From an uncultured bacterium (lineage in GTDB: Bacteria; Eisenbacteria; RBG-16-71-46; CAIMUX01; WJJG01): DNA of 64,000 bases. Shown here piece after piece: positions 15,189-59,194 of this stretch. A program made the translations under genes and the position numbers. The stretch lies in NCBI GenBank assembly GCA_964654025.1, contig CAZZIF010000002.1, forward strand, positions 883-64,882. Reading direction: 5' to 3'. The notes beneath the pieces were generated by a model. The model worked only from the letters and a program-made list of their open reading frames with translations. It searched no databases and had not been told where the DNA came from. Position 1 is the first letter of the stretch. Every line of letters begins with the position of its first letter.

Positions 15189-16403
15189 ATGGACGTGCAC
15201 GATCTGGTCCGCAGTCTGCGTCAAGATGCCGAAACCAAGATCATCTTGCTCGTTTCCGACGGTTTGGGCGGCCTCTCCGAACGCCCGGAAGGAGGGCCGA
15301 CGGAGCTCGAAGCGGCCGAAACCCCGCACCTGGATGAGATGGCGGCCCAGGGAAGTTCGGGTCTGCTGCAACCGGTCTTGCCGGGCATCACGACCGGTAG
15401 CGGGCCGGGACACCTCGCGCTCTTCGGCTACGATCCCCTCCGCTACGTGATCGGACGCGGCGTGCTTTCCGCCCTGGGCGCCGGATTCGACCTTCGGCCA
15501 GGCGATGTCGCCGCCCGCGGAAATTTCTGCACCGTGGACGAGCAGGATGCGATCATAGACCGGCGGGCGGGGCGCATTTCTACCGAGGTAGCCAGGGAGC
15601 GCATCGAGCTACTGCGCACGTGCGAACTCGAGAATGTCGAGCTGTTTGTCGAGCCAGTGCGCGACTACCGGTTCACGCTGGTTCTGCGGGGTGAAGATCT
15701 GGGGGCGGAGATCAACGATACCGATCCCCAGAAGACCGGCCTGACACCGCGGGTGCCCGAGGGCCGAGACGATGCGTCGAAACGCACCGCCGAACACTTG
15801 AGAGGCTTCTTGCGACATGCGCGTGAGAAGCTGCACGATGACTCCCCGGCCAACATGGTCGTCCTGCGAGGCTTTTCGAAGCTGCCGGATTGGCCCACTT
15901 TCGGAGACATCTACGGGCTGAAGGCGTGCGCCATCGCAACCTACCCGATGTACCGGGGTCTCGCCCGATTGCTGGACATGCAGGTCGTCGTGGGCGAGGA
16001 TGCCGATCTGGGCGGCCAGGTCGATGCCCTCATCGAGGCCTGGCATTCGTTCGACTTCTTCTTTCTTCACTACAAGGATACCGATAGCCGGGGCGAAGAC
16101 GGAGACTTCCGGGCCAAGGTCGGGGAAATCGAGAAACTGGATGCGAGCATCGGCGCCGTCCGCTGCCTGGCCCCGGATGTCATGATGGTGACCGGGGATC
16201 ACAGCACGCCCAGCCGGCTGCGCAGTCACAGCTGGCATCCCGTGCCCCTCGTGATGACGAGTGAGGCTTGCCGTGTAGACGGCTGCACGCGCTTCGGCGA
16301 GACCGAATGTGGTGAACGGGGTGGTCTGGGACACTTCGAAGCGAAACACCTGATGACCCTGGCCATGGCGCATGCCGGGAGGCTGGCCAAGTACGGGGCT
16401 TGA
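15189..16403 (+). CDS. apgM: Cofactor-independent phosphoglycerate mutase, archaeal-type (ApgM family)
   Basis: GGGAGG RBS 6 nt before the ATG at 15189. ILLVSDGLGG metal/Ser region and DHSTP motif near the C-terminus, typical of the ApgM/phosphonopyruvate decarboxylase-related family. Confidence 0.8.
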   Translation: MDVHDLVRSLRQDAETKIILLVSDGLGGLSERPEGGPTELEAAETPHLDEMAAQGSSGLLQPVLPGITTGSGPGHLALFGYDPLRYVIGRGVLSALGAGFDLRPGDVAARGNFCTVDEQDAIIDRRAGRISTEVARERIELLRTCELENVELFVEPVRDYRFTLVLRGEDLGAEINDTDPQKTGLTPRVPEGRDDASKRTAEHLRGFLRHAREKLHDDSPANMVVLRGFSKLPDWPTFGDIYGLKACAIATYPMYRGLARLLDMQVVVGEDADLGGQVDALIEAWHSFDFFFLHYKDTDSRGEDGDFRAKVGEIEKLDASIGAVRCLAPDVMMVTGDHSTPSRLRSHSWHPVPLVMTSEACRVDGCTRFGETECGERGGLGHFEAKHLMTLAMAHAGRLAKYGA

Positions 16404-18360: not shown

Positions 18361-18740
18361 TTCGCACCGCGGGCCGAGGCCGGCAACGCGCTGGGCGGAT
18401 CGACCTGGCCGCCCTATCATTTCCCACCGCCAGAACATGACCTCAAGATAGCCTTGCCCATCGCGCGGCTCCCACGGGAGAAATCCCATCCGGAGCTTCC
18501 GGAGAATCCTTACTTTGGCCATTGGCGGGGTCGAAGCTCGTCCAGGTGACTAGGACGTTCGAAGGAACTGTCGTACGATGGAGCCGGCGACGGGCTGGAC
18601 GGCGACGGGCTGGACGACGCGGGTTGGTCGCCGGGTTGGTCGACGAGCGGTTCGACGATTTGTTCGGCGTGCTGGCTGGTAGGCCGGTCGATGCCAACAG
18701 AGACAGGGACAGGCCGAGGCTGAGAATAGGAAGACCAAGG

Positions 18741-23600: not shown

Positions 23601-25988
23601 CTGCAGACGCTCATCGATGCTCTCACCAACCTGCCGGACCGACATGAGACCGAGAGCGAGAAGATTGCCGTCCGCCTGCGCGATCAAGAGGTCCTCAAGC
23701 GTCACCTCGTTCGAATCTGCGCGGTGAATGAAAGCATTCTCCGATTCGTGCATGCGGTGGTGGAGGTCTTCAACGGGCGGAAAGGGCACCCGGGCAGCTT
23801 CGACCGGTTGGACGCGTTGCTGGCCCACCAAGCCTATCGCCTGGCGTTCTGGCGCGTCGCTTCTGACGAGATCAACTACCGGCGCTTCTTCGATATCAAC
23901 GATCTGGCCGGGCTGTCGATGGACAATCCGGAGGTTTTCGACCGAACCCACCGGCTGGTGATGGAATGGATCAGCCAGGGGAAGGTCCAGGGACTCCGCA
24001 TCGATCACCCCGATGGACTGCGGGATCCGTTGGACTACTGTCGCCGGCTACAGGAGGCGGCCCGTGTGGCGCGCGGACCCCGCGGAGGACGGAGAACCAT
24101 AAACCCATCCACCGGGTGTGACAATCCTTCGTGCGAGCCCGAAGCGGTCTACATTGCCCTCGAGAAGATCCTGATCGGGGACGAGCAGTTGCCCCAGGAC
24201 TGGCCCGTGCATGGAACCACCGGGTACGAGTACGCGTCTGCGGCGACCGGAATGCTGATCGATCAGAGTGCCGAAGCAGCTCTGGAGCGCATCTACAATC
24301 GGTTCGTTGGCCGCAAGACCGAGTTCGCCGAGTTGCTCTACCGCTGCAAGAAGATGATCGTTCACGGGCCTCTGGCCAGTGAACTCAACGTCCTTGCCAC
24401 GGATCTGAACCGGATCGCAGAGTCCGATCGTCACACGCGCGATTTCACGCTCAGCCGCATCAAGGAGGCGTTGGCGGAAGTCGTCGCCTGCTTCCCCGTT
24501 TACCGAACCTATGTCACCGGACGGGGCGTGAGCCCAGAGGATCGCCGGTACGTCGACCAGGCCATCGCCGAGGCCCGGATGCGTTCTCAAGCGATCGATG
24601 TCAGTATCTACGACTTCATCGCCCGCATGCTGCTGCTCGACTTCACCGAGCGCACACCCGAAAGCGTGCGATCTTCGGCGACGCGCTTTGCGATGAGTTT
24701 TCAGCAGTACACGGGACCGGTCATGGCCAAGGGCATGGAGGACACCGCATTCTACGTCTTCTACCGGCTTCTCTCGCTCAATGATGTGGGGAACGATCCC
24801 ACACGGTTCGGGCGGTCGGTGGCCGAATTCCACGAGCGCAACCGGGATCGGGCTCAAGATCGGCCCCATGCCCTCTTGAGCAACTCGACACACGATCATA
24901 AGCGCAGTGCGGACGTGCGGGCGCGAATCAATGTCCTCTCGGAAGTCCCCGACCGCTGGCAAGCGTGCGTGTCTGGCTGGAATCGAATGAACCGCAGTCA
25001 CAAGCGCCGAGTGGCGGGCCTGTTCGCGCCGACGAAGAATGACGAGTACGCCTTCTATCAGACGCTGATCGGCGTCCATCCCGCGGGCGCCCTCACCGGA
25101 GATCAGATCGACACATTCCGTGAACGTATCGAGCGCACCATGATCAAGTCCGTGCGTGAGGCGAAGGTGCACAGCAGCTGGATCAATGTCAATCCGGCCT
25201 ATGAGGATGCAACGTTATCCTTCGTCCGCGCAGTTCTGGCCGATGATCGCGAGGACGGCTTCCTGGCTGACTTCAGAAGGTTCCAAAGCAAGGTTGCGTT
25301 TTTCGGTATGCTGAATGGTCTGGCCCTCACGTTGCTCCAGCTCACTGTCCCCGGCGTGCCGGACATCTATCAAGGAGACGAACTGTGGCGCTACTCCCTG
25401 GTCGATCCCGACAATCGGCGCCCGGTGGACTTCGCGTTGCGCCAGCGGATGCTGCGAGAACTCGACCAGCAGCAACGCGAGCCGTCCCTTTCGCAAGACG
25501 AATCAAGTGGCGATTCGGAAGCCTCGGAAGCCGATGCCGCATCCGTCCCGGCACTCGCGCGAACGCAGGATCTCTTCTCGTCTTTGTCGGACGGACGGGC
25601 CAAACTATACGTGCTCAGCCGGGTGTTGAGGCTACGCGCTCAATTGCCGGAGCTGTTCAGCTCGAGCGAGTATGAGGCGCTCGCGGTTCGGGGGAGCCTG
25701 GCCGATCACGCCTGCGCCTATCTTCGGCGTCATGGAGAGCGGGCGATGATCGTCATTGTGCCGCGTCTGTGCGCCAAGCTCCTGGACTTCACACCGGGAC
25801 GGATGCCGGTCGGCGAAAAGGTGTGGGGTGATACGTGGATCGAGCTGGCGAGGCCTGAGGCCGGGCGCGTCCTTCGCCACGTCCTGACCCGTGAGACGCT
25901 GGAACCGGGTCAGGGTGACCAGTCGGGGAGGATTCCGATGGGTGAGGCCCTCCGGTCGATTCCGGTCGGCCTCTTCTTGTGCGAATAG
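20676..25988 (+). CDS. treY: Bifunctional 4-alpha-glucanotransferase (GH77, MalQ-like N-terminal half) / malto-oligosyltrehalose synthase (TreY, C-terminal half), 1770 aa
   Basis: Continuous ORF with a GGAGAGGAG RBS. Residues 1-~760 carry the MalQ N-terminus ALADRAGIEPEYWDIRGQ and the GH77 core. Residues ~770-1770 begin ATYRLQMNRRFTFDDAARLVPYLKRLGISHCYLSPVLKARPGSLHGYDIIDH, the TreY start and GH13. Confidence 0.85.
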   Translation: MDREALAALADRAGIEPEYWDIRGQRHQITDGTKLTLLRAMGLPVADEGDLRRVLTEWDDAIWLRGIQPVLVKTGGDAPIEVDLHWPVEALEQTVVWTLQEEGGIRHQDRFVPAGLEMVAERTIRGRPFVRLRLRIHASTALGYHTLWIEPEEASEASNATYDDPPAGASERPPKSAAESVQSMRLIVAPTACYIPPGMSDEDRVWGPAVQLYALRSVRNWGAGDFSDLTVLLELAAEQGAGMVGLNPLHALFPHDHTRRSPYSPSSRRFLNTFYIDVEAVPEFRECEAARRLVGEPRFQAQLLSLREAEFVDFAAVSSAKRSVLERLYEEFRNRHVANSTARAEAFRAYQVRGGHRLWQHAVYEALSEHLHAKDPHLWGWPVWPEAYRDPDGAAVLAFAQENHARVEFFQYLQWVAQEQFAGAGRRSLDLGLKVGLYEDLAIGVDIGGLDTWLDQSLYALDARIGAPADDFNPEGQEWGLPPMIPHRLRATGYQPFIEVLRANMQHGGVLRIDHVMGLMRLFWVPSGEKPTHGAYVRYALSDLLAVLALESQRNHCMVVGEDLGTVDDRVRDAMGPAQIHAYRVFYFTKGEDGAFRLPENYPSQALVTVSTHDLPTLPGYWEGRDIHVRGELDLYPDPATEEEQVLTRGQDRTRIMVSLSKAGLLPKGTGLDAALLPDLPDSLIQAIHAYLARTPSRMMTFQFEDVMGQLDQVNFPGTVDEHPNWCRKLPITLEAIGEDPRWTGLTEVLRRERGMGRVAADREDEVQRTGPDALVPRATYRLQMNRRFTFDDAARLVPYLKRLGISHCYLSPVLKARPGSLHGYDIIDHNELNPEIGGRGAFDHLVHVLHQHQMGLILDMVPNHMGIGWDNPWWYNVLENGPASPYAGFFDIDWQPVKPELHGKVLLPVLEDHYGLVLERGLLKVIFDAGTGEFTLGYHDHRFPLDPRTYPTLLTHGIERLQQELGAEDPNLHELQTLIDALTNLPDRHETESEKIAVRLRDQEVLKRHLVRICAVNESILRFVHAVVEVFNGRKGHPGSFDRLDALLAHQAYRLAFWRVASDEINYRRFFDINDLAGLSMDNPEVFDRTHRLVMEWISQGKVQGLRIDHPDGLRDPLDYCRRLQEAARVARGPRGGRRTINPSTGCDNPSCEPEAVYIALEKILIGDEQLPQDWPVHGTTGYEYASAATGMLIDQSAEAALERIYNRFVGRKTEFAELLYRCKKMIVHGPLASELNVLATDLNRIAESDRHTRDFTLSRIKEALAEVVACFPVYRTYVTGRGVSPEDRRYVDQAIAEARMRSQAIDVSIYDFIARMLLLDFTERTPESVRSSATRFAMSFQQYTGPVMAKGMEDTAFYVFYRLLSLNDVGNDPTRFGRSVAEFHERNRDRAQDRPHALLSNSTHDHKRSADVRARINVLSEVPDRWQACVSGWNRMNRSHKRRVAGLFAPTKNDEYAFYQTLIGVHPAGALTGDQIDTFRERIERTMIKSVREAKVHSSWINVNPAYEDATLSFVRAVLADDREDGFLADFRRFQSKVAFFGMLNGLALTLLQLTVPGVPDIYQGDELWRYSLVDPDNRRPVDFALRQRMLRELDQQQREPSLSQDESSGDSEASEADAASVPALARTQDLFSSLSDGRAKLYVLSRVLRLRAQLPELFSSSEYEALAVRGSLADHACAYLRRHGERAMIVIVPRLCAKLLDFTPGRMPVGEKVWGDTWIELARPEAGRVLRHVLTRETLEPGQGDQSGRIPMGEALRSIPVGLFLCE

Positions 25989-26886: not shown

Positions 26887-27211
26887 GAATGCCTCCCGTT
26901 TCCTTCTGCACGTGCAAGAAGTCATGTGATCGACGCACATCACTCTAAGACCACTGCGTGTCACCGGATACCAGGGAGATACTGGCGTGGCGACCGTTCG
27001 TTTCCGTCCTCGTGCGTGGGGGCACTCCCCAGGAGATCCCCGGTGGGATGCGATGCGGTAAGAGTGGATTGCCCGGTGTCCTCGTGAACGGTGATGCGCT
27101 ATTGAATGGAGTATCCGGTAGCCAGATAAGTGCCGCCGACAGGGCGGGTACAATCGATTTGTGGCCGACGAACACAATGGGGTGACGACCTTGAAGCGAC
27201 GCGAGGGACCA

Positions 27212-31562: not shown

Positions 31563-31851
31563 CGCATTCTCCTTTCAGCGCGACAGTAGCGGGGCCGATG
31601 ACTGGGAGCCGTCGGGCAGTGGCAGGAGGAGGCGCCCGGGAAGGTGCCGGTCTGTGGGGGCGGGGTGGCCCCTAGCCGGCTCGGGGCCACCGTATGGGGA
31701 ATGGCCCCATGGAGATGACCGGGCTTGCCCCAACTGCTTCTCGTCCATCATCGCAAGCATTCGTCGCATCTCCTGTTTACAATCTTATTGAAACAATCAA
31801 AATGGAATCTCCGATATCGATTCCGGAGCCCGCGTCTTTCGGAGCCCCTAC

Positions 31852-41815: not shown

Positions 41816-42217
41816 TCAGGCCACCGGCAAGGCCAGAGGCTTCGATGACTGCCACAGGCCGTGGATGTTGCAAAGACTGGTAGCAAAAAGCGTCCCCGGC
41901 TTGTCGGTCTTGAATGATACCTGGACCTCGTGATGCGTGTAGACCCCGCTCGTATCGGGACCGTCCACGGATTCGCCATGTGCCTGGAATGCCGTGTGGG
42001 CGATTTCATAGGGGAACGGAGCATCCTCGGGATGGAAGTACACCTTGATCCACCGAATGTGATGAGCGGTCTCGTTCGGATGCGCGACTTCTTTCCCAAG
42101 GGTGACCGTGATCGGGAAGTACTGCCCCTTCTCTACTTCCTCCGGTACTTCTATCACCGGCACGTGTTTCTCGGTCTTCCAGTCATCGGTTTGATAGAGC
42201 TTGCAGATGTCTGCCAT
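41816..42217 (-). CDS. Superoxide reductase (desulfoferrodoxin ferrous-iron-binding domain)
   Basis: KHVPVIEV, HHIRWI and CNIHGLWQS (the SOR iron ligands His/His/Cys/His). GGAGGAGG RBS. Confidence 0.8.
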   Translation of the reverse strand: MADICKLYQTDDWKTEKHVPVIEVPEEVEKGQYFPITVTLGKEVAHPNETAHHIRWIKVYFHPEDAPFPYEIAHTAFQAHGESVDGPDTSGVYTHHEVQVSFKTDKPGTLFATSLCNIHGLWQSSKPLALPVA

Positions 42218-42658
42218 GGGCTGGCCTCCTCCATGTCGTCTGTGTGTACTGCTCGGGTGAACCGCCTATTGCACGGAGCACCGGGTATTCGCACTGGTGG
42301 CAATCCGGGCCTGCCGGGGTGGGAGGGGCGGAACGGGAGTGATGGTGCACAGGGATCGAGTACTCCCGTTCCACCCCATGGGTTGGGGGATGAGCGTAGC
42401 AGAAGCGTAGGGCGTGCGGCCGGCGTGCGGAGCCAAACAGCCGCACGATCTACGAAACTACTTGATCGTGACGATGCTTCGATCGCGCGACCCCGCTTTC
42501 TTCATCGTGACCGCCCTTCTATGCCTATCGATGTCTTGCGCTTGGCGGCAGTATCCTCGATGGAGAATGCCGCTCGCCATCGGGGAACAGCCGGTCAGGG
42601 CTTCGGGTAGATCGCCAGGTCGGACCAGGGGTTGATTCCGTCTCTGGTGTGACGCGAG

Positions 42659-43816: not shown

Positions 43817-44257
43817 GGGCGACCTCCTAGACTGGCCTCCTGGGCTGTCCTCTTGGCGGTGGTGAGTTGCGGACTCGCATACACAATCACGCACCGTGAG
43901 TGTCAGGAGCAACCGGGCGGCCTCCCGGCTGGCGTCTAGGATCTGGCCCGAGGGCAACCAGGTTCGAGAAGTGTGATGGTGGGGAGACGTCCTCGTGAAG
44001 TCGTTGGCGGTGGGGAAGTCCCGTGCCATGGGGGATTCCCCGAAATTTCCGTGTGCGGGTTGCTAAGTGCTGTAGTTTAGGCGCATTCATTGGCACCTCG
44101 CTTAGCTGTTCTTGGTTTGTTTGCAGTCACCGGCTATACTGCGGGCACTGACCAAGAGCATGGGCCGGGCGAGGCTGAGGGGTGTTCTGAGCAATGCGTT
44201 ATCAGATCCGGTAGACGTTCTTCAGCTCTTGCGGACTGCTCGGTAGGGGAGGAAAGC

Positions 44258-44920
44258 ATGACCACGAATATTCAGAACCGCACCAAGGTGTTACTCGTCG
44301 ACGATCATCCGATCGTTCGCCGGGGACTGGCGAAGCTGTTGGGAGAACGTCCCAATATCGACATCTGTGGCGAGGCCGACGGGGCCGCGCAGGCACTCGA
44401 TCATATCGCCAAGGACCGGCCGGACCTGATCATCATCGACATTTCGCTCAAGGATGTCGGCGGCATCGAGCTGATCAAACAGATCCGTGCCCTGGATAGC
44501 GAGATCAAGCTCATGGTGTGCTCTATGCACGACGAGAACCTGTATGCCGAAAGAGTGCTTCAAGCGGGCGCCCTGGGCTATGTCAACAAGGAGACTGCCA
44601 CCGAGCGCATCTTCGACGCCATCGAACAGGTCATGGCCGGCAGGGTCTATCTCAGCCCCGAGATGTCCGAGCAACTTCTCAGCCGCATGGTGGGCGGGGA
44701 GCCAAACACGGACAAGACCTCCATCGAAACACTGTCGGATCGTGAGCTCGAGGTGTTCGAGCTGATCGGGCGGGGATTGACGACGCGGCAGATCGCCGAG
44801 CGGCTGTGCCTGAGCGTCAAGACGATCGAGACCTACCGAGAGAACCTGAAGATCAAACTGAACCTTACGAACAGCCCCATGTTGATTCGTGCCGCGGTTC
44901 AGTGGCTCGAAACGCGCTAG
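44258..44920 (+). CDS. NarL/FixJ (LuxR)-family response regulator
   Basis: GGGGAGGA RBS. REC domain KVLLVDDHPIVRRGL...DLIIIDISL. C-terminal HTH LuxR domain LSDRELEVFELIGRGLTTRQIAERLCLSVKTIETYR. Confidence 0.85.
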   Translation: MTTNIQNRTKVLLVDDHPIVRRGLAKLLGERPNIDICGEADGAAQALDHIAKDRPDLIIIDISLKDVGGIELIKQIRALDSEIKLMVCSMHDENLYAERVLQAGALGYVNKETATERIFDAIEQVMAGRVYLSPEMSEQLLSRMVGGEPNTDKTSIETLSDRELEVFELIGRGLTTRQIAERLCLSVKTIETYRENLKIKLNLTNSPMLIRAAVQWLETR

Positions 44921-44975: not shown

Positions 44976-45179
44976 TCACTCACGGACATCGTGAACGAGA
45001 ATGGCCTGGCTCGGGCATTCGGCCGCCACCGCCACGCAATCGGTCTCGAGTTCGGCCGGCACCTTGTCGACCAAGACGGTGGCCTTCTTGCTGCCCTCCT
45101 GGAACCGGAAGATGCTCGGCAAGCGCATGACGCATATGCCGGCGCCTGTACATTTGACCTGATCTACTTCAACTCGCAT
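44976..45179 (-). CDS. Small ferredoxin (single [3Fe-4S]/[4Fe-4S] cluster, FdxA-like)
   Basis: AAGGA RBS before the ATG at 45179. MRVEVDQVKCTGAGICVMRLPSIF...DCVAVAAECPSQAI cluster-binding pattern. Confidence 0.65.
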   Translation of the reverse strand: MRVEVDQVKCTGAGICVMRLPSIFRFQEGSKKATVLVDKVPAELETDCVAVAAECPSQAILVHDVRE

Positions 45180-45246
45180 GGTTTGTTCCTTTCCAAGCAC
45201 ACGGCGTCTCCCAAGCACTCGTTCCTTCCCAAGCGGATGACCGCGG

Positions 45247-47706
45247 TCAGTCCGAGAGATGGGATACGGCAACCGTCTGCCCATGGCTATTGGTTTCATC
45301 CGGCCGCAGACTGAATTCCGCGGTGTCACCGGCACACAGCTCCGCTTCCTCCTGATGACACGCAACGCGGATCGTCCCGGTTCCCATCTCTCGCGCGGTG
45401 ATTCTCAGCTCGTCCCGAGACAGCACCACGACGAGGGAATGTTTTCGGTAGCGTAGGGTCATTCGCAGGCAATCGATGCCGATCGGCAGCGCCGGATTGA
45501 ACCACAGCGCGTCCCCTCGTGTTTCGAGCCCCGTGTAGTTGCGCTGCACGAGATCGACCGTGCCCGCCATGGCGCCGAGATGGATTCCCTCCGGTGTCGT
45601 TCCCCCCTGGATGTCGCTGAGATCGGCATCGAGCGCCTCGCTGAATAACTTCCAGGCCCGTTCACGATCCGACCGTGCCAGCACCCACGCATGAACCACG
45701 TGGCTGAGCGTGGAGCCATGCGGGGTCCGTTTCAAGTAGTACGTGACATTGGCGGGGATCATATCCGGGTGCCACGTGATGCCAAGCCGGGTGAACATCT
45801 CTTCGAGTTCCTCGGCCGAAAACAGATAGAAGAGCATGAGCACATCGGCCTGCTTGGAGACCTTGTAAGCATTGGGCGTGTCGCCTTCGGCCTCCAGAAT
45901 GCGGTCCAAGCGTTGGATGTTGCCGTACTTCTCCCGGTAGCCGTCCCAATCGAACTCCTTGAGGTCGAAGTATCCTTCGAACTGGCTGATGATCCCCTCC
46001 TCGGAAATCACGACGCGCAGTTTCCGGCTGATCTCATCCCAGGCCTCGATTTCGCTCTCGTCGATCCGAAGCAGCTCGCGCAGGGTCGAAAGGCGCTCCT
46101 CCGGAAGAATCTCCAGCAACTCCAGCGCTCGGCAGAGAACCCACGACGCCATGACATTGGTGTAGGCGTTGTTGTCGAGGCCGGGTTCGGGCGTATCCGG
46201 AAGCCGGTCGTGATACTCGTCCGGGCCCATGACCTTGCGAATTTCGTAACAGTCGAAGGTGCTGTTGTAGGTGGCCAAGCTGGCGAAGAGACGGGCGATC
46301 TCCAAGATCATCTCGGCGCCGATCCAGCTCAAGAACTCGCGGTCATCGGTGACCTGATAGTGCTGCCAGACGTTGTAGGCGATGGACGCGTTGACGTGCC
46401 TCTGGAGATGAGTATTGTCCGGCAGCCAGCGCATCGACCTCGGATTGAGGTGAAGCACCTGGCTCTCTTCGCGGCCGTCACTCCCGCTCTGCCAGGGATA
46501 GAGGGCGCCTTGGAAGCCTTCCCGCTGGGCCGCCGCCCGGGCTTCGGAGAGCCGCCGGTACCGGTAGCCGAGCAGCGCGCGCGTTATCTCCGGCATGCGA
46601 AGGTTGAGCGTAGGGAAGATGAACATCTCGTCCCAGAAAATGTGGCCTCGGTAAGCCTCCCCGTGAAGACCTCTGGCCGGGACACCCACATCGAGTCCCA
46701 TGATGTTGGGCGACGCCGTCTGAAGGATGTGAAACAAATGCAGGTGCAGAACCAGCGATGTGTGGGAGGCCTGTTCTTCATCAGGTCCTTCGAGAGCCAG
46801 GTCGAAGCGCTGCCACAGATGGTACCAGAGACCGGCATGCCGGCGCGCCAGCGACTCGAAGTGCTCGGCGCGATCGAGCTCCTTGACGGCAGCCAGACCG
46901 CATTCGGAGATGGCTGGATCCCGAGAGGTATAGAGCGCTACGGTCTTCTCGATCGTGATCGGATGGCCCTCGGCTGCCCGGCAGTCGAAGAACTGAGCAA
47001 CATAGGCATCTTCACCGGCTGCCGTGACGGGAGGGGGCACCTGGCGTCCCTGGCATTCCACGCGGGTGCGGGCCGCCTGGACGATCTCGATGTGGGACTG
47101 GTTCGTGCGTACCCGCAGGAGCATGCCGCCGTTGATGGCACGGGCCTCCAAGGGCTCCAGGTGGCGACTCTCCAGCGGCCGGTAACGAGCGACATTGTCG
47201 TTGATGACACGTCCATCGAGCGCTGATCGGATCTGAATCGTTCCCGACCAGTTTTCGGGAAGCAGCGTTGCCTCCAGAGCTGCCAGATGTGGGCTGTCCA
47301 TGTGGACGAGCCGCCGCGAGCGATACTGCGACACCCGCCCCTCCCGGTCGCGAAAGCGAATGTTCCGCTGCAGGATGCCGCGTTTGAGATCGAGTTGCTG
47401 GTGATAGTCCAGGAGTTCGACGCGGCGGAAGTCGATCCAGTCTTCTCCCGCTACCCGGAGAGAGAGGGGGAGCCAGTTGGGCATGTTGACCAGGTCTTCG
47501 TTTTCGACCTTGTGATGAGCGATTTCGGTTTCGCGCCGGTTGTAGCCGCCCGCCAAGTAGGTGCCGGGATAGTGCACATCGTCGGCTCGGGTCTCCTCCC
47601 CTGCGCCACGCGTTGCGAAGTAGCCATTGCCGAGGGTGCAGAGCGCTTCGCGTAAGCCCTCTTGCTCGGGGGCGAAGCCTTCATAGCTCAGATGCCAGAT
47701 TGACAA
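45247..47706 (-). CDS. Glycoside hydrolase family 65 phosphorylase (trehalose / trehalose-6-phosphate / kojibiose phosphorylase-like)
   Basis: TTG start at 47706 with a GGGAGG RBS, overlapping the stop of the upstream gene by 19 nt. N-terminus WHLSYEGFAPEQEGLREALCTLGNGYFATRGAGEE is the GH65 N-terminal signature. Central (alpha/alpha)6 domain. Confidence 0.8.
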   Translation of the reverse strand: MSIWHLSYEGFAPEQEGLREALCTLGNGYFATRGAGEETRADDVHYPGTYLAGGYNRRETEIAHHKVENEDLVNMPNWLPLSLRVAGEDWIDFRRVELLDYHQQLDLKRGILQRNIRFRDREGRVSQYRSRRLVHMDSPHLAALEATLLPENWSGTIQIRSALDGRVINDNVARYRPLESRHLEPLEARAINGGMLLRVRTNQSHIEIVQAARTRVECQGRQVPPPVTAAGEDAYVAQFFDCRAAEGHPITIEKTVALYTSRDPAISECGLAAVKELDRAEHFESLARRHAGLWYHLWQRFDLALEGPDEEQASHTSLVLHLHLFHILQTASPNIMGLDVGVPARGLHGEAYRGHIFWDEMFIFPTLNLRMPEITRALLGYRYRRLSEARAAAQREGFQGALYPWQSGSDGREESQVLHLNPRSMRWLPDNTHLQRHVNASIAYNVWQHYQVTDDREFLSWIGAEMILEIARLFASLATYNSTFDCYEIRKVMGPDEYHDRLPDTPEPGLDNNAYTNVMASWVLCRALELLEILPEERLSTLRELLRIDESEIEAWDEISRKLRVVISEEGIISQFEGYFDLKEFDWDGYREKYGNIQRLDRILEAEGDTPNAYKVSKQADVLMLFYLFSAEELEEMFTRLGITWHPDMIPANVTYYLKRTPHGSTLSHVVHAWVLARSDRERAWKLFSEALDADLSDIQGGTTPEGIHLGAMAGTVDLVQRNYTGLETRGDALWFNPALPIGIDCLRMTLRYRKHSLVVVLSRDELRITAREMGTGTIRVACHQEEAELCAGDTAEFSLRPDETNSHGQTVAVSHLSD

Positions 47707-49283
47707 AGATCTGCCTCCCTCATCGTCTTGTGCAATTCATCCAGGAAGTGGCGGACGGCGTAGGGATCCTGTAACAGATATTGGGCGTGGGTTTCATGAG
47801 GGCCACCCATGACGGCGATTGCGAGTCCCCTCTCCGAGAGAGCCCCGAAGGCGTCTTCGTCGGTGACGTCATCGCCGATGTAGAGGGGAACCGCCCGGGC
47901 CTCGTCCAGATGCTGCACATCGAGAATCCAGTGGACCGCGCGTCCCTTGTCCCACGGGATGTTGGGTCCGAGGTCGAAGACCTTGCGTCCCCGCGAGACC
48001 CGCAGTTGCGGAATCTCGTCGGTGATCGCGCTGACCTCGGCGGCGATGACCGGAATCAGGCCGGGATCGACCTGGCGCACATGGATTGCGATAGAGTAGC
48101 TCTTGCGCTCGAGTTCTGCGCCCGCCACGCGGCCTACGAGGCTGCGGAGTTTCTGCTCGGCCTCCTCGAGCTTCGGCAAGGTCGCCTGGGCATCGTCCTG
48201 GACGAAGGTCTCTCCCTTCGGCCCTTCGATCTCGAAGCCGTGGCTGCCGGCGTACCACAGGTTCTCGAGCCCGACGCGCCGCTTCACGTCTTGAAGGTCA
48301 CGGCCGCTGACCACGGCAGTGGGAACGCATTGCGCGAGGGTCGCCATGCTCCTGCGCGTCGCCTCGGGTAGGTCCGCCTGGTTGGGATCGTCCACAATCG
48401 GCGAAAGGGTGCCGTCGAAATCGAGAAAGACCGCCAGCTGGCGGTTCCCCAGCTTCTGGGGGAGTGAGTGCAGTAGACGTATCGCGTCCGGCAAAGCGGC
48501 TTTCCGCCGCTGGGGGCCCTGCTTCTTGGGATGGGTCATCTTCACGTCGCCCAGGTCATTGACGACGACATCCGCGCCACCATCGTGAAGATCCTGGTGA
48601 TTGGCATTGCGCGCCACGCCGAGCACGCAGCCGAATCCCCCCCGGTGGCCCGCCGCTACGCCCGACACGGCATCCTCAATCACGATAGCCCGGGCAGGCG
48701 AGACCGACAGGCGCCGAGCGGCCTCCAAGAAGGTGTCGGGTTGCGGCTTGCCGGCCAGACTCTGGCGTTCGGCTTCGACACCATCGACGATGACCTCGAA
48801 GAGGTGATCGAGGTGGGCCGCCTCGAGCAGGGCCCGGGCGTTCTTGCTTGACGAGACCAGGCCGAGGTGGATGCCCCGTTTCTTGGCCTCGTTGAAGAAG
48901 TCGACGGAACTATCGTAGCGCTCCACCCCATCGCGCTGAATTCGCTCGCGGAACTTGCGGTTCTTGTCGTTGCCGATCCCGCAGACCGTCTCACGATCCG
49001 GTAGATCCTCCGGCGAACCCCAGGGCAGCTTGATACCGCGGGAGTCCAGGAAGGACTTGACACCCTCGTAGCGGGGCAGTCCGTCCACGTAGCGCAAGTA
49101 GTCGTGGCGGGGATCGAAGGGATCCTGCGCCTCACCGGTCTTGCCTGAATACTTCGCCAGGAACTCATCGAAGGCGTCCTTCCAGGCCGCCGCGTGGACC
49201 GTCGCCGAACGGGTGACGACGCCGTCGAGATCGCTGATGATGGCATCATAGCGATCCGGCAGGACGATCATCTCTGCAATCAT
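47688..49283 (-). CDS. otsB: Fusion protein: beta-phosphoglucomutase-like HAD domain (N-terminal) + trehalose-6-phosphate phosphatase OtsB domain (C-terminal)
   Basis: AAGGGGG RBS before the ATG at 49283. N-terminal DAIISDLDGVV...GKPQPD (HAD motifs I-III, PgmB-like). C-terminal AVFLDFDGTLSPIVDDP...YIGDDVTDEDAF (T6PP motifs). An in-frame His-rich repeat region upstream (to 49493) leaves an alternative longer start open. Confidence 0.75.
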   Translation of the reverse strand: MIAEMIVLPDRYDAIISDLDGVVTRSATVHAAAWKDAFDEFLAKYSGKTGEAQDPFDPRHDYLRYVDGLPRYEGVKSFLDSRGIKLPWGSPEDLPDRETVCGIGNDKNRKFRERIQRDGVERYDSSVDFFNEAKKRGIHLGLVSSSKNARALLEAAHLDHLFEVIVDGVEAERQSLAGKPQPDTFLEAARRLSVSPARAIVIEDAVSGVAAGHRGGFGCVLGVARNANHQDLHDGGADVVVNDLGDVKMTHPKKQGPQRRKAALPDAIRLLHSLPQKLGNRQLAVFLDFDGTLSPIVDDPNQADLPEATRRSMATLAQCVPTAVVSGRDLQDVKRRVGLENLWYAGSHGFEIEGPKGETFVQDDAQATLPKLEEAEQKLRSLVGRVAGAELERKSYSIAIHVRQVDPGLIPVIAAEVSAITDEIPQLRVSRGRKVFDLGPNIPWDKGRAVHWILDVQHLDEARAVPLYIGDDVTDEDAFGALSERGLAIAVMGGPHETHAQYLLQDPYAVRHFLDELHKTMREADLCQSGI

Positions 49284-49295
49284 GATGGGACCCCC

Positions 49296-49379
49296 TTCAT
49301 GGGCGCCTTGATGGGTGCCTTCATGGGCGCCTTCATGGACGCCTCCATGGGCGCCTCCATGGGCGCCTCCATGCGCGGC
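49296..49379. repeat. 12-bp tandem repeat (TTCATGGGCGCC) x7; in frame with the downstream (minus-strand) otsB-like ORF it would encode (H/A)xGA His-rich repeats
   Basis: Direct reading. Confidence 0.85.
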
Positions 49380-49698
49380 CGGTCGGATCCTCCCGCGCTT
49401 GTTCGAAGAAAGATCCAGCCCCCGCGATCGGGTAGTCGATGCGTTGACGCTAAGCCCAGTCCAGGCAGGCAACAACGGGGGGCGGCCTTGCATGGCACTG
49501 GGGGATCACCCCACCCGTGGGATCGGGAGTGGTGGGAGAGGGAATCGGTTCATCTCGTATGGGCTACCCGAACGAGAGCGCGCATCCTGGGTGTGACGCA
49601 TCGTTGGCCGGCCATGAAGACGCAGCCCGAAGACGCAGTCCGAAGACGCAGTCCCATGTCCGACCATGATCCATGGACGTGAACCAAAGGAGGCCAAG

Positions 49699-50188: not shown

Positions 50189-51133
50189 CTAGTCTTCCAG
50201 AACCACCCGGCCTGAAACCAAGTCCAACAGCTCTCCGGTGATGGCCTGTTGGCGTTGCTGGTTGTGCTGCTGGGTGAGATCGTCCAAACGGTCCTCGATG
50301 TCTTGCTCGGCCGCCTGCATCGACGTCAACCGACTCGCCTGCTCACTGGCCGCCGACTCGGCCAGTGCGCGGAACATGGTGACGAACAGGTACTGCCGGA
50401 TGAGACCTGCGAGAAGCCGGTCCCGGTTCATGCGTGCGATCGGAAGTGAACGAGAGTGCCACGGACGGTTGACGAGATGCCGCAGATGAGACAGGTCCAG
50501 GGGCCAGAGGGTCGTCTCCTCCGGGCGGTATCGGGAGGCCGAGAGGCGCCGGTTGTGGAAGAGGCGAATGCGCTGGATGGCGTGTTCGCTTCGCCATCGT
50601 TCGGCCTGGACGAGAGCCTCGCCGGCTTGCCGGGCGATGCCCTCGGCCTGCGGGGGCACGTCGACGCGGCGGCTCACCCTCAGGCCGGCATCTTGGAGTC
50701 GGGCGGCGACCCGCTCTCCGATCGCCAAGATCCTCGGGCGGGTATCGTCGGTATCTTCGGGTTCGGAGGGACCACCGCCGCCGTCGCCGGCCTTCGGATT
50801 CCCGGCCGTCGACTCAGCATCGCGAGCCAGCTTCTCGATAGCCAGCGAGGCGATATCGTCATTGAACTGCCCGCACATTCCCTGATCCGATCCGATCACG
50901 ATCGCGGCCGTCTCCCGGCCGAGGGGAGTCAGCACTTCCTTCAGTTTCGCGTCCGAGTTTCGCAGCGCAACCTGAAGGGCCAGATCAATCGCCTGCCCCC
51001 ACTCCCCCACGGCGTCGGCCGCGTGCTCGTATTGCCGGATACTGGCGGCAGCGAGGGCCTTCATGCTCTTGACGACCGAATGGAGGTCCTTCGTGCGCTC
51101 GATGCGTCGCTGAAGTGCTCCGAGGGTTTGCAT
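50189..51133 (-). CDS. atpG: N-ATPase (F-type) gamma subunit
   Basis: Gamma N- and C-terminal coiled-coil motifs (RRIERTKDLHSVVKSMKALAAAS, ...ITGELLDLVSG). Contains an acidic ~35-aa insertion (GNPKAGDGGGGPSEPEDTDD). Confidence 0.8.
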   Translation of the reverse strand: MQTLGALQRRIERTKDLHSVVKSMKALAAASIRQYEHAADAVGEWGQAIDLALQVALRNSDAKLKEVLTPLGRETAAIVIGSDQGMCGQFNDDIASLAIEKLARDAESTAGNPKAGDGGGGPSEPEDTDDTRPRILAIGERVAARLQDAGLRVSRRVDVPPQAEGIARQAGEALVQAERWRSEHAIQRIRLFHNRRLSASRYRPEETTLWPLDLSHLRHLVNRPWHSRSLPIARMNRDRLLAGLIRQYLFVTMFRALAESAASEQASRLTSMQAAEQDIEDRLDDLTQQHNQQRQQAITGELLDLVSGRVVLED

Positions 51134-51142
51134 GGACGTACC

Positions 51143-52741
51143 TCATCCACGTTTCTTCAGGATCGACCGGGCCGCGTCCAAGAACGCCTGGCGGTCCTCA
51201 TCCAAGAGCTTCTCCCCGTCCCGGATGCGTTGACTCTGGTCTGCGAGCTTCCCGGGAACCGTGTCTTGGATCTCGCCCAGGACCTCACCCACCTGCTCGG
51301 TGGGCACCGAGTCGAAGAGCCCCTCGTTGAGGGACAGTAAGACGGCGATCTGCTCCGGGACGGTGCGTGGGTGATACTGTGGTTGCTTGAGCACTTCACG
51401 CACCCGGCGGCCTCGCGCCAACGTGGCCTTGGTTTCCTCGTCGAGTCGTGTTCCGAACCGGGCGAAGGACTCCAGCTCTTCGAACTGCGAATACGCCAGG
51501 CGGAGATCTCCCGCAACGGCCCGGTACGCGTCCAGCTGGGCCTTGCCGCCCACGCGTGAGACCGACTTGCCGACATCGACCGCCGGCAAGACGCCTCGTT
51601 GCTGTAGGGTGGGCGAGAGGTAGATCTGCCCATCAGTGATCGAGATCAGGTTCGTGGGGATGTAGGCCGAGATGTTCTGCGCTTGCGTCTCGATGATCGG
51701 CAGGGCCGTTACCGAACCACCGCCCTCCCGATCGCGGAGATGGGTGGCACGTTCGAGCAATCGCGCGTGGACGTAGAAGATATCACCGGGATAGGCTTCA
51801 CGAGCCGGCGGTCGACGCAGAAGCAGGGAGAGTTCCCGGTAGGCCCGGGCGTGCCGGGTGAGATCGTCGAAGACCACCAGTGCATCTTGGCCTTGATCCA
51901 TGTAGTACTCAGCCATGCTCATCGCCGCGTAGGGCGCCACGTACTTGAGACCGGGGGGCTCGTCGCCACCTGCGAAGACGACCGTGCAGGTGTCGAACGC
52001 TCCGTGGGATCGCAAATCGTCGACGACTCGGGCCACGGCCGTGCCGCGCAGGCCGATGGCGCAGTAGATGCATCGAACCTGGGTATCCCGCTGATTGAGG
52101 ATCGCATCGATCGCGATGGCGGTCTTGCCGGTGCGGCGATCCCCGAGAATCAGCTCCCGTTGTCCACGGCCAACCGGAATGAGCGCATCCACGACCCTCA
52201 GTCCAGTCTGCAGCGGAACCGAGACGGGCGCGCGATCGAGGATCTCCGGCGCCGATCGTTCGATTGGACGCCGCTCCTCGGTCTCCACGGGCCCCTGGCG
52301 GTCGAGCGGCCGCCCGGTTGGATCGATGACGCGCCCCAACAGCTTATCGCCCACGGGTACATCCACAACACGGCCCGTCCGCCGAACGATCGATCGCGAC
52401 CCAATCTCGTCCCAGGCATCCAGGAGGGCAATGCCGACCCGGTTGGGCTTCAGCGTGAGGGCCATGCCGCGGAAGCCGCCCTCGAAATGAAGCAGCTCCT
52501 GGGAGCCCACGTGGGGAAGCCCGTCGGCATCGGCGACGCCACGTCCCACCTGCAGAACGGTGCCGACCTCCTCGATGTCCAGCCGGGCAGGCTGGTCCTG
52601 CAGGGTTTGCTCTACCGCGGAGGCCACATCTTCAAGCACGCCTTCGAGCACGCCTTCGAGCGCGCCTTCAAGCGTGCCTTCAGGCACGGCTTCAGGCACG
52701 TCTGCAAGACCGTGCCGGTTGGTGCTGTTTGGGGCCGTCAT
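51143..52741 (-). CDS. atpA: N-ATPase (F-type) alpha subunit; N-terminus carries an in-frame 12-bp x7 tandem repeat encoding (VPEA/TLEG/VLEG) repeats
   Basis: P-loop [15 protein letters not shown]. Repeat at 52631-52714 inside the CDS. Confidence 0.85.
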
Positions 52742-53628
52742 CGGACTTGCTCCCGCTGCTTCTCCGGCGCGCTTGGCTCGTCTTGCTCGCCCGATTCCCC
52801 TTCTCCTTCCTCACGGTCAGGGTTACCGCGGGTCGCCGGGTGATCCAAGAGTCCCACGAGGTTCTCCTCGAGTCGATCCAGGTGATGATCGAGACTCCAG
52901 GCCAACCGATGTCCGCCCGCCGATAGCTCGAGACCGCAGAGGAGATCGTCGTCCTCGGTCGCGTGGATCTCGACCTGCATGTCGAGGCGCCCTTCGACCG
53001 CCTCCTGAAGTCTCTTGCCAGCATCATCCGATAGAGCGTGCGAGCTTCGAACATGGAGTGTCCCGTCGTTGTCGCGCACCGCCTTGGCAAGAGGCTTCGT
53101 CTTCTCCTCGTCGAGAGCCTCGAGTTTCTCGATCAAGGTGGAGACGATCTGAGCATGGAGTTCCTGGTCGGCGAGCTCGTGCAGCGCGTGACGACTCACG
53201 GCGCAGACCTGCCGGCCCGACTCTCTCCGGAGAGCCTTCAGGAAGTCGCCGCGCTCGCGCTCGAGGCTTTGGACCCAACGCTGCCGTCGGGCCTGGATGT
53301 CATCGCGCAGTCGGCGCGATTCTTCCGCATGCTGCTTCTCAGCCTTCTCCCGAGCGGATCGGAGGATTGCCTGCCGTTCGCCTTCGAGCTCCTCCTTCTG
53401 TCGCCGCAACTCCGCCTGGCGCCGTTCGGCCGCTTTCTCCTTCTCCTGGGCTTCGTCGAGGTGTTCGGCGATGCGCCGTTCGCGCGCATCCATGGCGGCG
53501 ACGATGCGGTCGTACAGGAAGTGCTTCAAGAGCAGCACCAGGATCACGAAGTTGACAATCTGGGCTCCGAATGTGAACCAATCAATCTGCACGGCAAGCC
53601 GTCCTATTGTTGAGTGAAGTGACTCCAA
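52738..53628 (-). CDS. atpF: N-ATPase subunit b (long, 296 aa; possibly b/delta-like)
   Basis: Single N-terminal TM helix, then a long charged coiled-coil ([28 protein letters not shown]). Start uncertain; as called it overlaps the 3' end of atpE by ~25 nt. Confidence 0.55.
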
Positions 53629-53873
53629 AATGGATTGGCGAAGATCAGGATGATCGCCACCACGAAGCAGTAGATGGCGGTCGACTCGATCATCGCCATC
53701 CCTACGAAGAGGGTTCGCGTGATCGTGTTCGATTCATCCGGTTGCTGTGCGATGGCGGCGAGCGCCCGAGCGAGTGCACGCCCCTCACCGAGGGCCGGAC
53801 CGATCGATCCGATCGCGATCGTGAGTCCGGAGATGATGATCGATCCGAGAGCTACGAGGTCCGCGCTTTCCAT
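53604..53873 (-). CDS. atpE: N-ATPase subunit c with complete Na+-binding signature
   Basis: 89 aa, two TM helices. Helix 1 has Q (AQQPDE). Helix 2 has [23 protein letters not shown], matching the Ilyobacter tartaricus E65-S66-T67...Y70 Na+ ligands ([21 protein letters not shown]). Confidence 0.8.
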   Translation of the reverse strand: MESADLVALGSIIISGLTIAIGSIGPALGEGRALARALAAIAQQPDESNTITRTLFVGMAMIESTAIYCFVVAIILIFANPFWSHFTQQ

Positions 53874-53933
53874 GAGTCCTTCTCCTGATTGGCCATTCGG
53901 TGGTAGCGGCGCCCGGTGCCGGCCACGCCGTGG

Positions 53934-54605
53934 CTAGTTGTCCTGTATTCTCGAGGCCGAGGCGATGTAGACCATCGCGAGCACGGCGAAGATGTAAGCG
54001 TGAATCTGTCCAATGAGCAGTTGCAGGGCCTGCATCACCGCCGGGAAGATGACCGGCACGACGGTCAGCAAGACGGCCACGATCAGCGTGCCGCTCATGA
54101 CGTTGCCGAACAGACGCACGGCCAGCGCGAGCGTTCGCGATAGCTCCCCGATCACGTGGAAGGGGAGCATCAGGGCAGAGGGCCTCACGTAGTGTGCCAG
54201 GTACCCTCTGAGGCCGCTGCGAGCAATGCCATAGGCCGGCACTGCCACGAATACGCACGCCGCCAGCGCACCGGTCGTCGACAGGGAGCCGGTCGGGGCA
54301 TGGTAGCCGGGAACGATGCTCAGGAAATTGGCCAGTGAGATGAACAGGAAGAGCGTACCCAGGAAAGGGAGATACCGAGCCGTCTTGCCACTGGTCACCT
54401 CCCGGATCTGATCCTGCATGTAGCTCACCACGGCCTCGAGCATCATCTGCCAGCGCGAGTAAGGTGGTTGCGAGGTGATTCGCCGGGTGACCAGCTGGGC
54501 CATCCCGACCAGCAGGAGCATCACGACCCAGGTGAAGACCAGGGTCGCATTGAGCGCAACCGGCCCCAGCTGGACGATGACGATACTGTCTGGGTTGATT
54601 TCCAT
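53934..54605 (-). CDS. atpB: N-ATPase subunit a
   Basis: Five TM helices. Conserved stator Arg in LAVRLFGNVMSG. Confidence 0.8.
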   Translation of the reverse strand: MEINPDSIVIVQLGPVALNATLVFTWVVMLLLVGMAQLVTRRITSQPPYSRWQMMLEAVVSYMQDQIREVTSGKTARYLPFLGTLFLFISLANFLSIVPGYHAPTGSLSTTGALAACVFVAVPAYGIARSGLRGYLAHYVRPSALMLPFHVIGELSRTLALAVRLFGNVMSGTLIVAVLLTVVPVIFPAVMQALQLLIGQIHAYIFAVLAMVYIASASRIQDN

Positions 54606-54644
54606 ACCATACCCTTTGGGTGTTGTTTGCGAACTGGATGACGA

Positions 54645-54941
54645 TCAGAGCCTTCCCACGAGGATGCCCTTCTTGGGGCCCAGGCGGCGGATCAGAATCG
54701 TTCGCGCGGCGATGAACCCAGCCAATGACGCCAGGACCGCCGGCCAGCCCCAGTGGATCGCCAGCAGCGAAATCACATAGATCGCAACCGAGAAACGCAC
54801 GAGCAGGGCCAGGACCGTCAGTGCGGTCGGCCAACGGGTGTGAGGCAGGCGGTGCGTCATCCACCACAGGACGCTGAAGTAGAATGCGCCCAGGGCTAGC
54901 CCCGCGATCAGCGACAGAATGACTTGGCCGACTACAGACAT
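54645..54941 (-). CDS. atpR: N-ATPase accessory membrane protein AtpR
   Basis: 98 aa, 3 TM helices with a conserved Arg. Positioned between atpQ and atpB as in N-ATPase operons. Confidence 0.55.
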   Translation of the reverse strand: MSVVGQVILSLIAGLALGAFYFSVLWWMTHRLPHTRWPTALTVLALLVRFSVAIYVISLLAIHWGWPAVLASLAGFIAARTILIRRLGPKKGILVGRL

Positions 54942-55020
54942 GATGGTCTGCGTACTCCCTTCTCCGAAATGCGTTCGGCGCGGCCGCCCTCGCCGACCCG
55001 GTGCGATCTGCGGACTCGCG

Positions 55021-55423
55021 CTACCGTGATTCCTGACGGTTCTGGATGCGTTCGGCTTCGCCTCCGCCTTCCGATGGGGGCGGTCCCTGCCCGGTTGCGG
55101 GCGAATCGTCCCGATGGATCTGTTCTCGTTCGCGGCGCACCCAGAACCATGCGTTTAGGCAGCCCAGGGTCACGCCGATGATCATGAACGTCAGCGTCCA
55201 GGAAACGGAGGTGCCTGAATGGCCTTGTTGGGCATCGAGCCAGAGTCCTACCACGATGCCGATCACCGTAGGGATGGCCACGGACCAGCCGACGATGCCG
55301 AAGGTCCCCAACCCGAACCACAGGCTGTGCTCCTTCTGCTTTGCGGCGCGCATTTTGCGCCGACGTTTCCGCTCGGCGGCCTGGCGGAAGCGCTTGGCCC
55401 CGGGCTCCATTCGGGGAGCGGGC

Positions 55424-55431
<8 letters not shown>
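55021..55431 (-). CDS. atpQ: N-ATPase accessory membrane protein AtpQ (AtpZ/AtpI-like)
   Basis: 136 aa. Basic N-terminus then 2-3 TM helices. Position after atpC is characteristic of atpDCQRBEFAG. Confidence 0.5.

Positions 55432-59194
<3,763 letters not shown>

Follow-up and report, generated by a model that had tools for sequence, protein, structure and literature searches.

A 64,000-nucleotide (nt) stretch of DNA from an uncultured bacterium of the Eisenbacteria lineage, referred to below as the window, carries two overlapping genes that a first-pass annotation took for a split counterpart of OtsB1 (Rv2006) of Mycobacterium tuberculosis, with a ferredoxin gene beside them. OtsB1 is a DosR-regulon protein of 1327 amino acids (aa) whose function is listed as unknown (PMC11046441) and which is not biochemically characterised (bioRxiv 10.1101/2024.11.12.623260). 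The question raised by this locus is what the shared combination of domains would do, and whether an answer in the window could be carried over to OtsB1. We hold with moderate confidence that the operon encodes a route centred on trehalose-6-phosphate (T6P), in which trehalose would be made from two molecules of glucose-6-phosphate (G6P) without nucleotide sugars; its substrates, direction and regulation are what we infer. The genes concerned are the following, where GH65 denotes glycoside hydrolase family 65:

47688-49283, minus strand: mutase-phosphatase gene, 531 aa; a β-phosphoglucomutase-like HAD domain (residues ~9-250) followed by a T6P phosphatase domain (~280-525)
45247-47706, minus strand: GH65 gene, 819 aa, TTG start; a glycoside phosphorylase, predicted T6P phosphorylase
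47688-47706, minus strand: overlap of 19 nt between the two, from the stop codon of the phosphatase gene to the TTG start of the GH65 gene

Gene structure and enzyme assignments

The open reading frames (ORFs) and their coordinates, the 19-nt overlap, the TTG start and the adjoining ferredoxin gene all lie where the first-pass annotation had put them, and public gene calls give identical product lengths (531 aa, 819 aa and 67 aa). The mutase-phosphatase and GH65 genes are in different reading frames. In the GH65 frame the TTG is the earliest possible start, and a Shine-Dalgarno sequence, GGGAGG, is found ~8 nt 5' of it. A longer alternative ORF of 601 aa (47688-49493, ATG at 49493) exists for the mutase-phosphatase, the conserved part of which begins at the ATG at 49283. 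A frameshift artefact could have produced such a split, and was excluded because separately assembled genomes show the same overlap and TTG start: L082 and L083, close relatives with ~93% LigA identity to the window, and L001, the closest outgroup, whose GH65 protein is 75% identical. The split is therefore genuine rather than an assembly or frameshift error, and the two overlapping genes are probably translationally coupled.

The Pfam search suggested by the first-pass annotation returned the families it had named. In the 531-aa protein, Hydrolase/HAD_2 covers residues 12-218 and Trehalose_PPase covers residues 286-505 (E 3e-48), while the 819-aa protein contains Glyco_hydro_65N (E 1.5e-72), Glyco_hydro_65m (E 1.9e-127) and Glyco_hydro_65C (E 5e-13), all far above cut-offs. 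The phosphatase domain scores 162.4 against TIGR00685, the T6P phosphatase equivalog (cut-off 68), and its motifs DFDGTL, SGRD, WDKG and GDDVTDEDAF are intact. Its closest solved structure is a trehalose-phosphate phosphatase, 5gvx (E 1e-70), which we take to be M. tuberculosis OtsB2 (Rv3372). An N-terminal stretch of the 5gvx protein can be aligned to the second half of the window mutase domain, but it reads SAHSAG where the window has the acidic motif EDAxSG. The window protein keeps both domains intact, whereas the 5gvx protein looks like a decayed version of the same two-domain arrangement.

The mutase domain also retains its motifs (DLDGV, SSSKN and EDAVSG) and scores 158.3 against the PGMB-YQAB-SF model (cut-off 153.35), which places it, as judged by these profiles, in an Rv3400-like branch of the wider subfamily and not with the Lactococcus-type equivalog. 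The closest solved structure is the β-phosphoglucomutase 8h5s (E 3e-58). From the position of the DxD motif in 8h5s, this is probably M. tuberculosis Rv3400, for which a D29A mutant and β-phosphoglucomutase function have been described (bioRxiv 10.1101/2025.11.20.689507). Rv3400 is a stand-alone protein, whereas the window mutase is fused to the phosphatase.

For the GH65 protein, the top solved match is 9lb6 (E 7e-136), deposited as 'Trehalose-6-phosphate hydrolase', followed by the kojibiose phosphorylase CsKP (3wiq); a literature search for a paper describing PDB 9lb6 found none. Using the catalytic and phosphate-site residues listed in a review of the family (PMC11442529; phosphate site K330, Y337, S631, S632 and H675 in CsKP numbering), we located the catalytic acid at E497, the -1 subsite at F357, W358, D359, K618 and Q619, and the phosphate site at R345, Y352, S665, T666 and H709, and saw no hydrolase catalytic base. 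These phosphorylase residues are invariant or conservatively substituted across 82 aligned sequences. Because the phosphate site and the catalytic acid are kept and the hydrolase base is absent, the protein is a phosphorylase, not a hydrolase.

Acceptor specificity within the family has been linked to a fingerprint of six correlated positions, 64, 392, 394, 402, 416 and 585 in CsKP (De Beul et al. 2021, PMC8537180). In that work, the fingerprint is TRIGPP for trehalose phosphorylase, EEAPWS for kojibiose phosphorylase and KV[MF]NES for maltose phosphorylase, while a Caldithrix enzyme with DQGQDE was shown to make T6P from β-glucose-1-phosphate (bG1P) and G6P. With positions mapped by pairwise alignment and not through the authors' own alignment, the window protein reads DQGQWE, identical to DQGQDE at five of six positions and unlike the trehalose, kojibiose and maltose phosphorylase and oligoNP motifs. 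The same DQGQWE is present in 66 of 82 relatives and, read by eye, in 9lb6. Position 392, where a Glu is crucial for kojibiose recognition, is a Gln in the window protein. Loop lengths are also informative: loop 3 matches that of CsKP in length and exceeds that of LbMP by 11 residues, loop 7 exceeds that of CsKP, and loop 11 is without the BsGGP insertion. Long loops 3 and 7 with a short loop 11 are the pattern of T6P and kojibiose phosphorylases, whereas trehalose phosphorylases have three short loops. Trehalose phosphorylase, kojibiose phosphorylase and hydrolase identities were excluded by the fingerprint, the loop lengths and the phosphate-site residues.

The protein is thus best assigned as a predicted T6P phosphorylase, with two caveats, one fingerprint position and the residues R412 and R426, taken up below. 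The first-pass annotation had read it as a phosphorylase that might act on T6P or on trehalose, and of these two it resembles the T6P type. Enzymes of this type (EC 2.4.1.216, subgroup 22 of PMC8537180) have been characterised in Lactococcus lactis, Ca. Kuenenia stuttgartiensis and Caldithrix abyssi, and the group includes PDB 9lb6/9lb7. Shared with them are the three-domain GH65 fold, the catalytic acid with a phosphate site replacing the base, the loop pattern and, at five of the six fingerprint positions, DQGQxE. Unlike the enzyme of the Lactococcus catabolic pathway, in which no T6P phosphatase is used, the window enzyme is coupled to one.

Distribution of the module

Relatives of the GH65 protein at ~60% identity number in the thousands. 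We compared 81 loci, consisting of 80 from a scan of species-representative genomes plus L001. The 80 scanned loci come from Desulfobacterales, Nitrospirota, Binatia, Planctomycetota, Bacteroidota, Actinomycetes, Alpha-, Beta- and Gammaproteobacteria and ethane-oxidising archaea. Their gene layouts are:

Mutase-phosphatase fused, GH65 separate (the window layout): 33/81 loci, the commonest
Three separate genes: 15/81 loci
Mutase and GH65 as separate genes, without phosphatase: 10/81 loci
Fully fused, OtsB1-like: 7/81 loci
GH65 without an immediately upstream mutase or phosphatase: 7/81 loci
Mutase-GH65 fused: 6/81 loci
Phosphatase and GH65: 3/81 loci (two truncated by the end of the contig, one lacking a mutase match)

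The domains are linked in 74 of the 81 loci: the mutase is fused or immediately upstream in 71, and the remaining three are those cut at a contig end or without a mutase. A phosphatase domain is present in 58 of these 74. Overlapping genes are the rule, found at 26 of 40 scored junctions (18 by 4 nt, four by 8 nt, two by 19 nt and two by 1 nt). The emphasis that the first-pass annotation placed on a split protein is therefore not borne out, since the two-gene layout is the usual one and the full fusion is among the rarer ones.

The fingerprint DQGQWE is found in 7/7 fully fused, 15/15 three-gene and 29/33 window-layout loci, and it is more variable where the phosphatase is absent. This uniformity where a phosphatase is linked ties the GH65 specificity to T6P. 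Beyond the three domains we found no strong conserved neighbour, the commonest occurring in no more than 8 of the 81 loci. OtsA adjoins the module in eight loci, all of which have the phosphatase domain, while most loci are without an adjacent OtsA. In other genomes, genes for PpsA, glucokinase and PGI are found repeatedly in the vicinity of the module. Three loci of Rhodospirillales type (L064, L067 and L072) have consecutive genes for mutase, phosphatase, GH65, OtsA and glucokinase, which may combine both possible sources of T6P in one operon.

Direction of the pathway and competing functions

In the scheme that we favour, the N-terminal HAD domain of the mutase-phosphatase would act as a β-phosphoglucomutase interconverting G6P and bG1P. 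The GH65 enzyme, an inverting T6P phosphorylase (T6P + Pi <-> bG1P + G6P), would run in reverse to make T6P, and the C-terminal HAD-IIB phosphatase would then hydrolyse T6P irreversibly to trehalose and Pi. Neither UDP- nor ADP-glucose would enter the net reaction, 2 G6P -> trehalose + 2 Pi. At equilibrium the mutase favours G6P about as strongly as the phosphorylase favours T6P, and the irreversible phosphatase step would pull the two reversible steps forward. Translational coupling of the overlapping genes would hold the enzyme amounts in balance. The three activities form an unbroken sequence only toward synthesis. Gluconeogenic genes for PpsA, GAPDH and ApgM in the gene island around the operon could supply G6P, and the recurrence of PpsA, glucokinase and PGI near the module elsewhere fits such a supply. 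A stress setting for the operon is suggested by other genes of the window, encoding TreYZ, OsmC, two BON-repeat proteins, DJ-1/PfpI and a hibernation-factor homologue. It is reasonable to read these data, as the first-pass annotation had done, as a phosphorolytic route distinct from TreYZ: the enzyme identities are well supported, and the direction of flux is the part that we infer.

Several observations weigh against this scheme. Identity of the GH65 protein to 9lb6, the nearest solved enzyme, is below 50%, and the match to the fingerprint of the characterised T6P phosphorylase stops short of 6/6 at position 416, which is Trp in the window and Asp in the Caldithrix enzyme. Two residues conserved in the window GH65 clade, R412 and R426, are Asp and Glu in 9lb6, so the +1 subsite may differ. 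The mutase domain falls under the cut-off of the strict β-phosphoglucomutase equivalog TIGR01990 (93.3 vs 189.4 bits). No member of the window GH65 clade is known to have been assayed in combination with its partner domains, and deletion of otsB1 in M. tuberculosis is without obvious phenotype (PMC11046441). Where OtsA adjoins the module, the phosphatase could be a plain OtsB, with the GH65-mutase arm draining or buffering T6P. Finally, the phosphorylase and β-phosphoglucomutase of Lactococcus run catabolically, as cited in PMC8537180 and PMC7608592.

These last two points define the main alternative, to which we give a real but clearly smaller chance. In it, OtsA encoded elsewhere in the genome makes T6P, the phosphatase is the OtsB of that pathway, and the GH65-mutase arm returns excess or imported T6P to two G6P, which would prevent toxic accumulation of T6P or let the carbon of trehalose be reused. 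The Lactococcus precedent, the phosphatase domain in every one of the eight loci with OtsA directly beside the module, and the requirement for the Rv3400 β-phosphoglucomutase during growth of M. tuberculosis on trehalose (bioRxiv 10.1101/2025.11.20.689507) all speak for such a valve. However, the window contains neither a phosphotransferase system nor a trehalose kinase that would make T6P from trehalose, most loci have no OtsA next to the module, and the order of the activities leads toward synthesis. A phosphatase that destroys T6P would also be an odd fusion partner in a catabolic design meant to conserve the phosphate bond.

The two GH65 caveats bear on a different possibility, that the enzyme uses another phosphorylated or acidic acceptor and that the 'T6P phosphatase' dephosphorylates the product, yielding a compatible solute other than trehalose. 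The clade-invariant loop 3 residues R412 and R426, acidic in 9lb6, and the differing fingerprint position would fit this, as would the known shifts of GH65 specificity at ~40-50% identity (PMC11442529). We nevertheless consider it unlikely: the phosphatase domain lies well above the T6P phosphatase equivalog cut-off and matches 5gvx at E 1e-70, five of the six fingerprint residues are those of an experimentally confirmed T6P enzyme, and all six, read by eye, are those of 9lb6, a structure named for T6P.

Surroundings of the operon and relation to OtsB1

The features around the two genes that bear on their regulation and on the comparison with M. tuberculosis are:

44976-45179, minus strand: ferredoxin gene, 67 aa, Fer4_15/Fer4_13; single-cluster
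44258-44920, plus strand: NarL/LuxR-family response regulator gene, Response_reg and GerE domains; convergent with the operon
49499-49513: candidate operator palindrome of 15 bp, reading TGGGGTGATCCCCCA on the operon strand; located in the divergent promoter region that separates osmC from the operon
49294-49377, minus strand: 12-nt tandem repeat, seven copies, TRF score 119; ends 10 nt before the start codon of the mutase-phosphatase

The ferredoxin gene follows the GH65 gene by 67 nt on the same strand. No terminator-like site was seen between them, in promoter and terminator scans that were at chance level, and the ferredoxin gene is probably the last, co-transcribed gene of the operon, in this lineage only. 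An imperfect 18-nt repeat of 2.8 copies (45185-45234) lies between the GH65 stop and the ferredoxin start. The protein has a CxxAxxC...CP motif with C10, C16 and C56, and Ala at the fourth ligand position, so a [3Fe-4S] cluster is the probable, predicted cofactor. Among solved structures it is closest to ferredoxins of the P. furiosus and T. maritima types and to P450-partner ferredoxins. The first-pass annotation had seen in this gene a mirror of the Rv2006-Rv2007c pair, and the adjacency of otsB1 to a ferredoxin gene in M. tuberculosis, as stated in that annotation, would agree with it. The class would not: FdxA (Rv2007c) is a two-cluster 7Fe ferredoxin of ~114 aa, unlike the single-cluster protein of the window. 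What the literature confirms is that Rv2003c-Rv2007c form one DosR-regulon block (PMC5309233).

Pairing of the module with a ferredoxin is also not conserved. The gene is kept in the close relatives L082 and L083 only; in the 81 loci, neither tblastn (at E<=1e-4 and at E<=10) nor a CxxXxxC...CP scan detected a ferredoxin within 8 kb of the module, the best tblastn match being weak (E 0.05) and 6 kb away, in L056. The closest outgroup, L001, has a response regulator directly after its GH65 gene and no ferredoxin. A role as conserved partner of the module was excluded on these grounds. That the ferredoxin could still be a functional redox partner or regulator in this lineage, as its retention in L082 and L083, its strand and spacing and the M. 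tuberculosis adjacency might be taken to mean, strikes us as highly improbable, since none of the three reactions involves electron transfer and the class differs from that of FdxA. It is probably a lineage-specific passenger, not a catalytic partner, and the presence of a ferredoxin near the module in both genomes is better explained if both genes belong to a common stress or dormancy gene set.

Such a set surrounds the operon. The island includes genes for an encapsulin, a PfkB kinase, a HisKA_3 hybrid kinase, GAPDH, PEP synthase (PpsA) and ApgM, two proteins with six BON domains each, DJ-1/PfpI, an M50 peptidase with a CBS domain, OsmC, a ribosome hibernation factor homologue of the Balon/Rv2629 superfamily (PMC10901736), an N-type ATPase operon, PolX and LigA. 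Several of these families occur in DosR-regulon blocks of M. tuberculosis (PMC5309233), and the part of the window from ~29700 to 57500 is a stretch with domain-level counterparts of DosR-regulon families. Besides the ferredoxin and the OtsB1-like module, the resemblances, all of them at the domain level only, are the DevR-like regulator, the HisKA_3 kinase, PfkB (cf. Rv2029c), the M50 peptidase with CBS domain (cf. Rv2625c) and the hibernation-factor homologue (cf. Rv2629).

The closest solved match of the response regulator encoded beside the ferredoxin gene is DevR/DosR (3c3w, E 9e-32), and the regulator found next to the GH65 gene in L001 is a copy that is 85% identical. The operon is probably controlled by this adjacent DevR-like protein, its candidate regulator. 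Read from the alignment, it has E and T at the positions of K182 and N183, DNA-contacting residues of DosR. The DosR box GGGAC-N4-GTCCC is absent; one match with one mismatch occurs in the 64 kb, at 13193 and elsewhere than the operon, against 5.9 expected. A search for exact palindromic half-sites shared by at least three intergenic regions found none.

The candidate operator, TGGGG-N5-CCCCA, came only from cross-locus comparison. Three exact copies occur in the window (27017-27031, 31695-31709 and 49499-49513) against 0.06 expected, a figure to be read with the pattern having been derived partly from the same data and so partly post hoc. Each of the three precedes genes of the island, with the copy ahead of the operon at a distance of 216 nt, and sites with one mismatch are found in divergent promoter regions at 44029-44043 and 57371-57385. 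Together these sites fall in the promoter regions of the BON, PfkB/kinase, operon/OsmC, M50/regulator and N-ATPase/PolX genes. Exact copies are also present upstream of the regulator gene in L001 (13180-13194) and upstream of the operon in L082 (8242-8256). The motif is a candidate for a shared operator of the DevR-like regulator.

The region upstream of the operon is unevenly conserved. Between the window and L082, a block ~150-300 nt upstream (49440-49590) is ~98% identical, and the leader nearer to the operon is ~88% identical; the block, which contains the palindrome, may hold the promoter. The tandem repeat at 49294-49377 has only three copies in L082 and L083 against seven in the window, with the frame kept. 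In the frame of the 601-aa ORF it would encode a His-rich (A-H-G/E-G)n N-terminal extension, and read in a different frame it gives a short upstream ORF (MEAPMEAP...), the TGA of which overlaps the mutase-phosphatase ATG. Three copies of a 13-nt repeat lie near the osmC start (49616-49654). An Rfam scan of 41-56 kb gave nothing meaningful.

Other genes of the window are recorded here in brief. The TreYZ pathway that the first-pass annotation had placed upstream is present as TreZ (18522-20597) and, next to it, a 1770-aa MalQ (GH77)-TreY fusion (20676-25988), both above their NCBIfam equivalog cut-offs (NF011077 for the fusion), giving a second trehalose route, based on glucan. Beside the trehalose module and osmC, at 50189-57461 (439-7501 in L082), lies a second ATP synthase operon, of the N type, and the L082 gene calls for it include the AtpR and ATPase_gene1 markers. 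The window LigA is closest, at ~58% identity, to that of uncultured Planctomycetota-type MAGs, so that the host appears to belong to an uncultured lineage. In L082 a desulfoferrodoxin-type superoxide reductase is called at 15251-15652 between the M50 peptidase and DJ-1, which suggests an anaerobic or microaerophilic host; it was not recovered among the ORFs chosen in the window at ~41900-42650.

How far do these observations extend to OtsB1? The two window proteins are collinear with a single fused protein of 1325 aa from a Chloroflexota genome (P0116), matching its residues 8-519 and 531-1324 at 47% and 60% identity, and fused homologues are listed at 1324-1353 aa. By comparison with fused homologues of 1325-1337 aa and not with Rv2006 itself, the window and OtsB1 have the same three domains in the same order, as the first-pass annotation had claimed. 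They also share a stress-regulon setting with a NarL-family regulator. In contrast, OtsB1 is one polypeptide where the window has two genes, and the window has TGGGG-N5-CCCCA as candidate operator in place of the DosR box. Judged by the order of its domains and by its length, OtsB1 seems to represent a widespread module in its rarer, fused form.

The individual enzyme types described here were already known, the gene layout is the commonest in the family, and there is nothing out of the ordinary in the window as a locus. What gives it value is the cross-genome comparison, which brings out a tightly linked module of mutase, T6P phosphatase and T6P-phosphorylase-type GH65 in many phyla, and removes the ferredoxin as a lead. 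Tentatively, and with more doubt than attaches to the operon itself, we suggest that this module, and by extension OtsB1, may constitute a sixth route of trehalose biosynthesis, one without a nucleotide sugar, serving bacteria and archaea under dormancy-type stress in which nucleotide sugars or energy are scarce. If true, this would assign a function to OtsB1, still listed as unknown in reviews. The comparison turns an unexplained protein into a hypothesis that can be tested at the bench: that OtsB1 would make trehalose from G6P without UDP- or ADP-glucose, or would buffer T6P, under dormancy-type stress.

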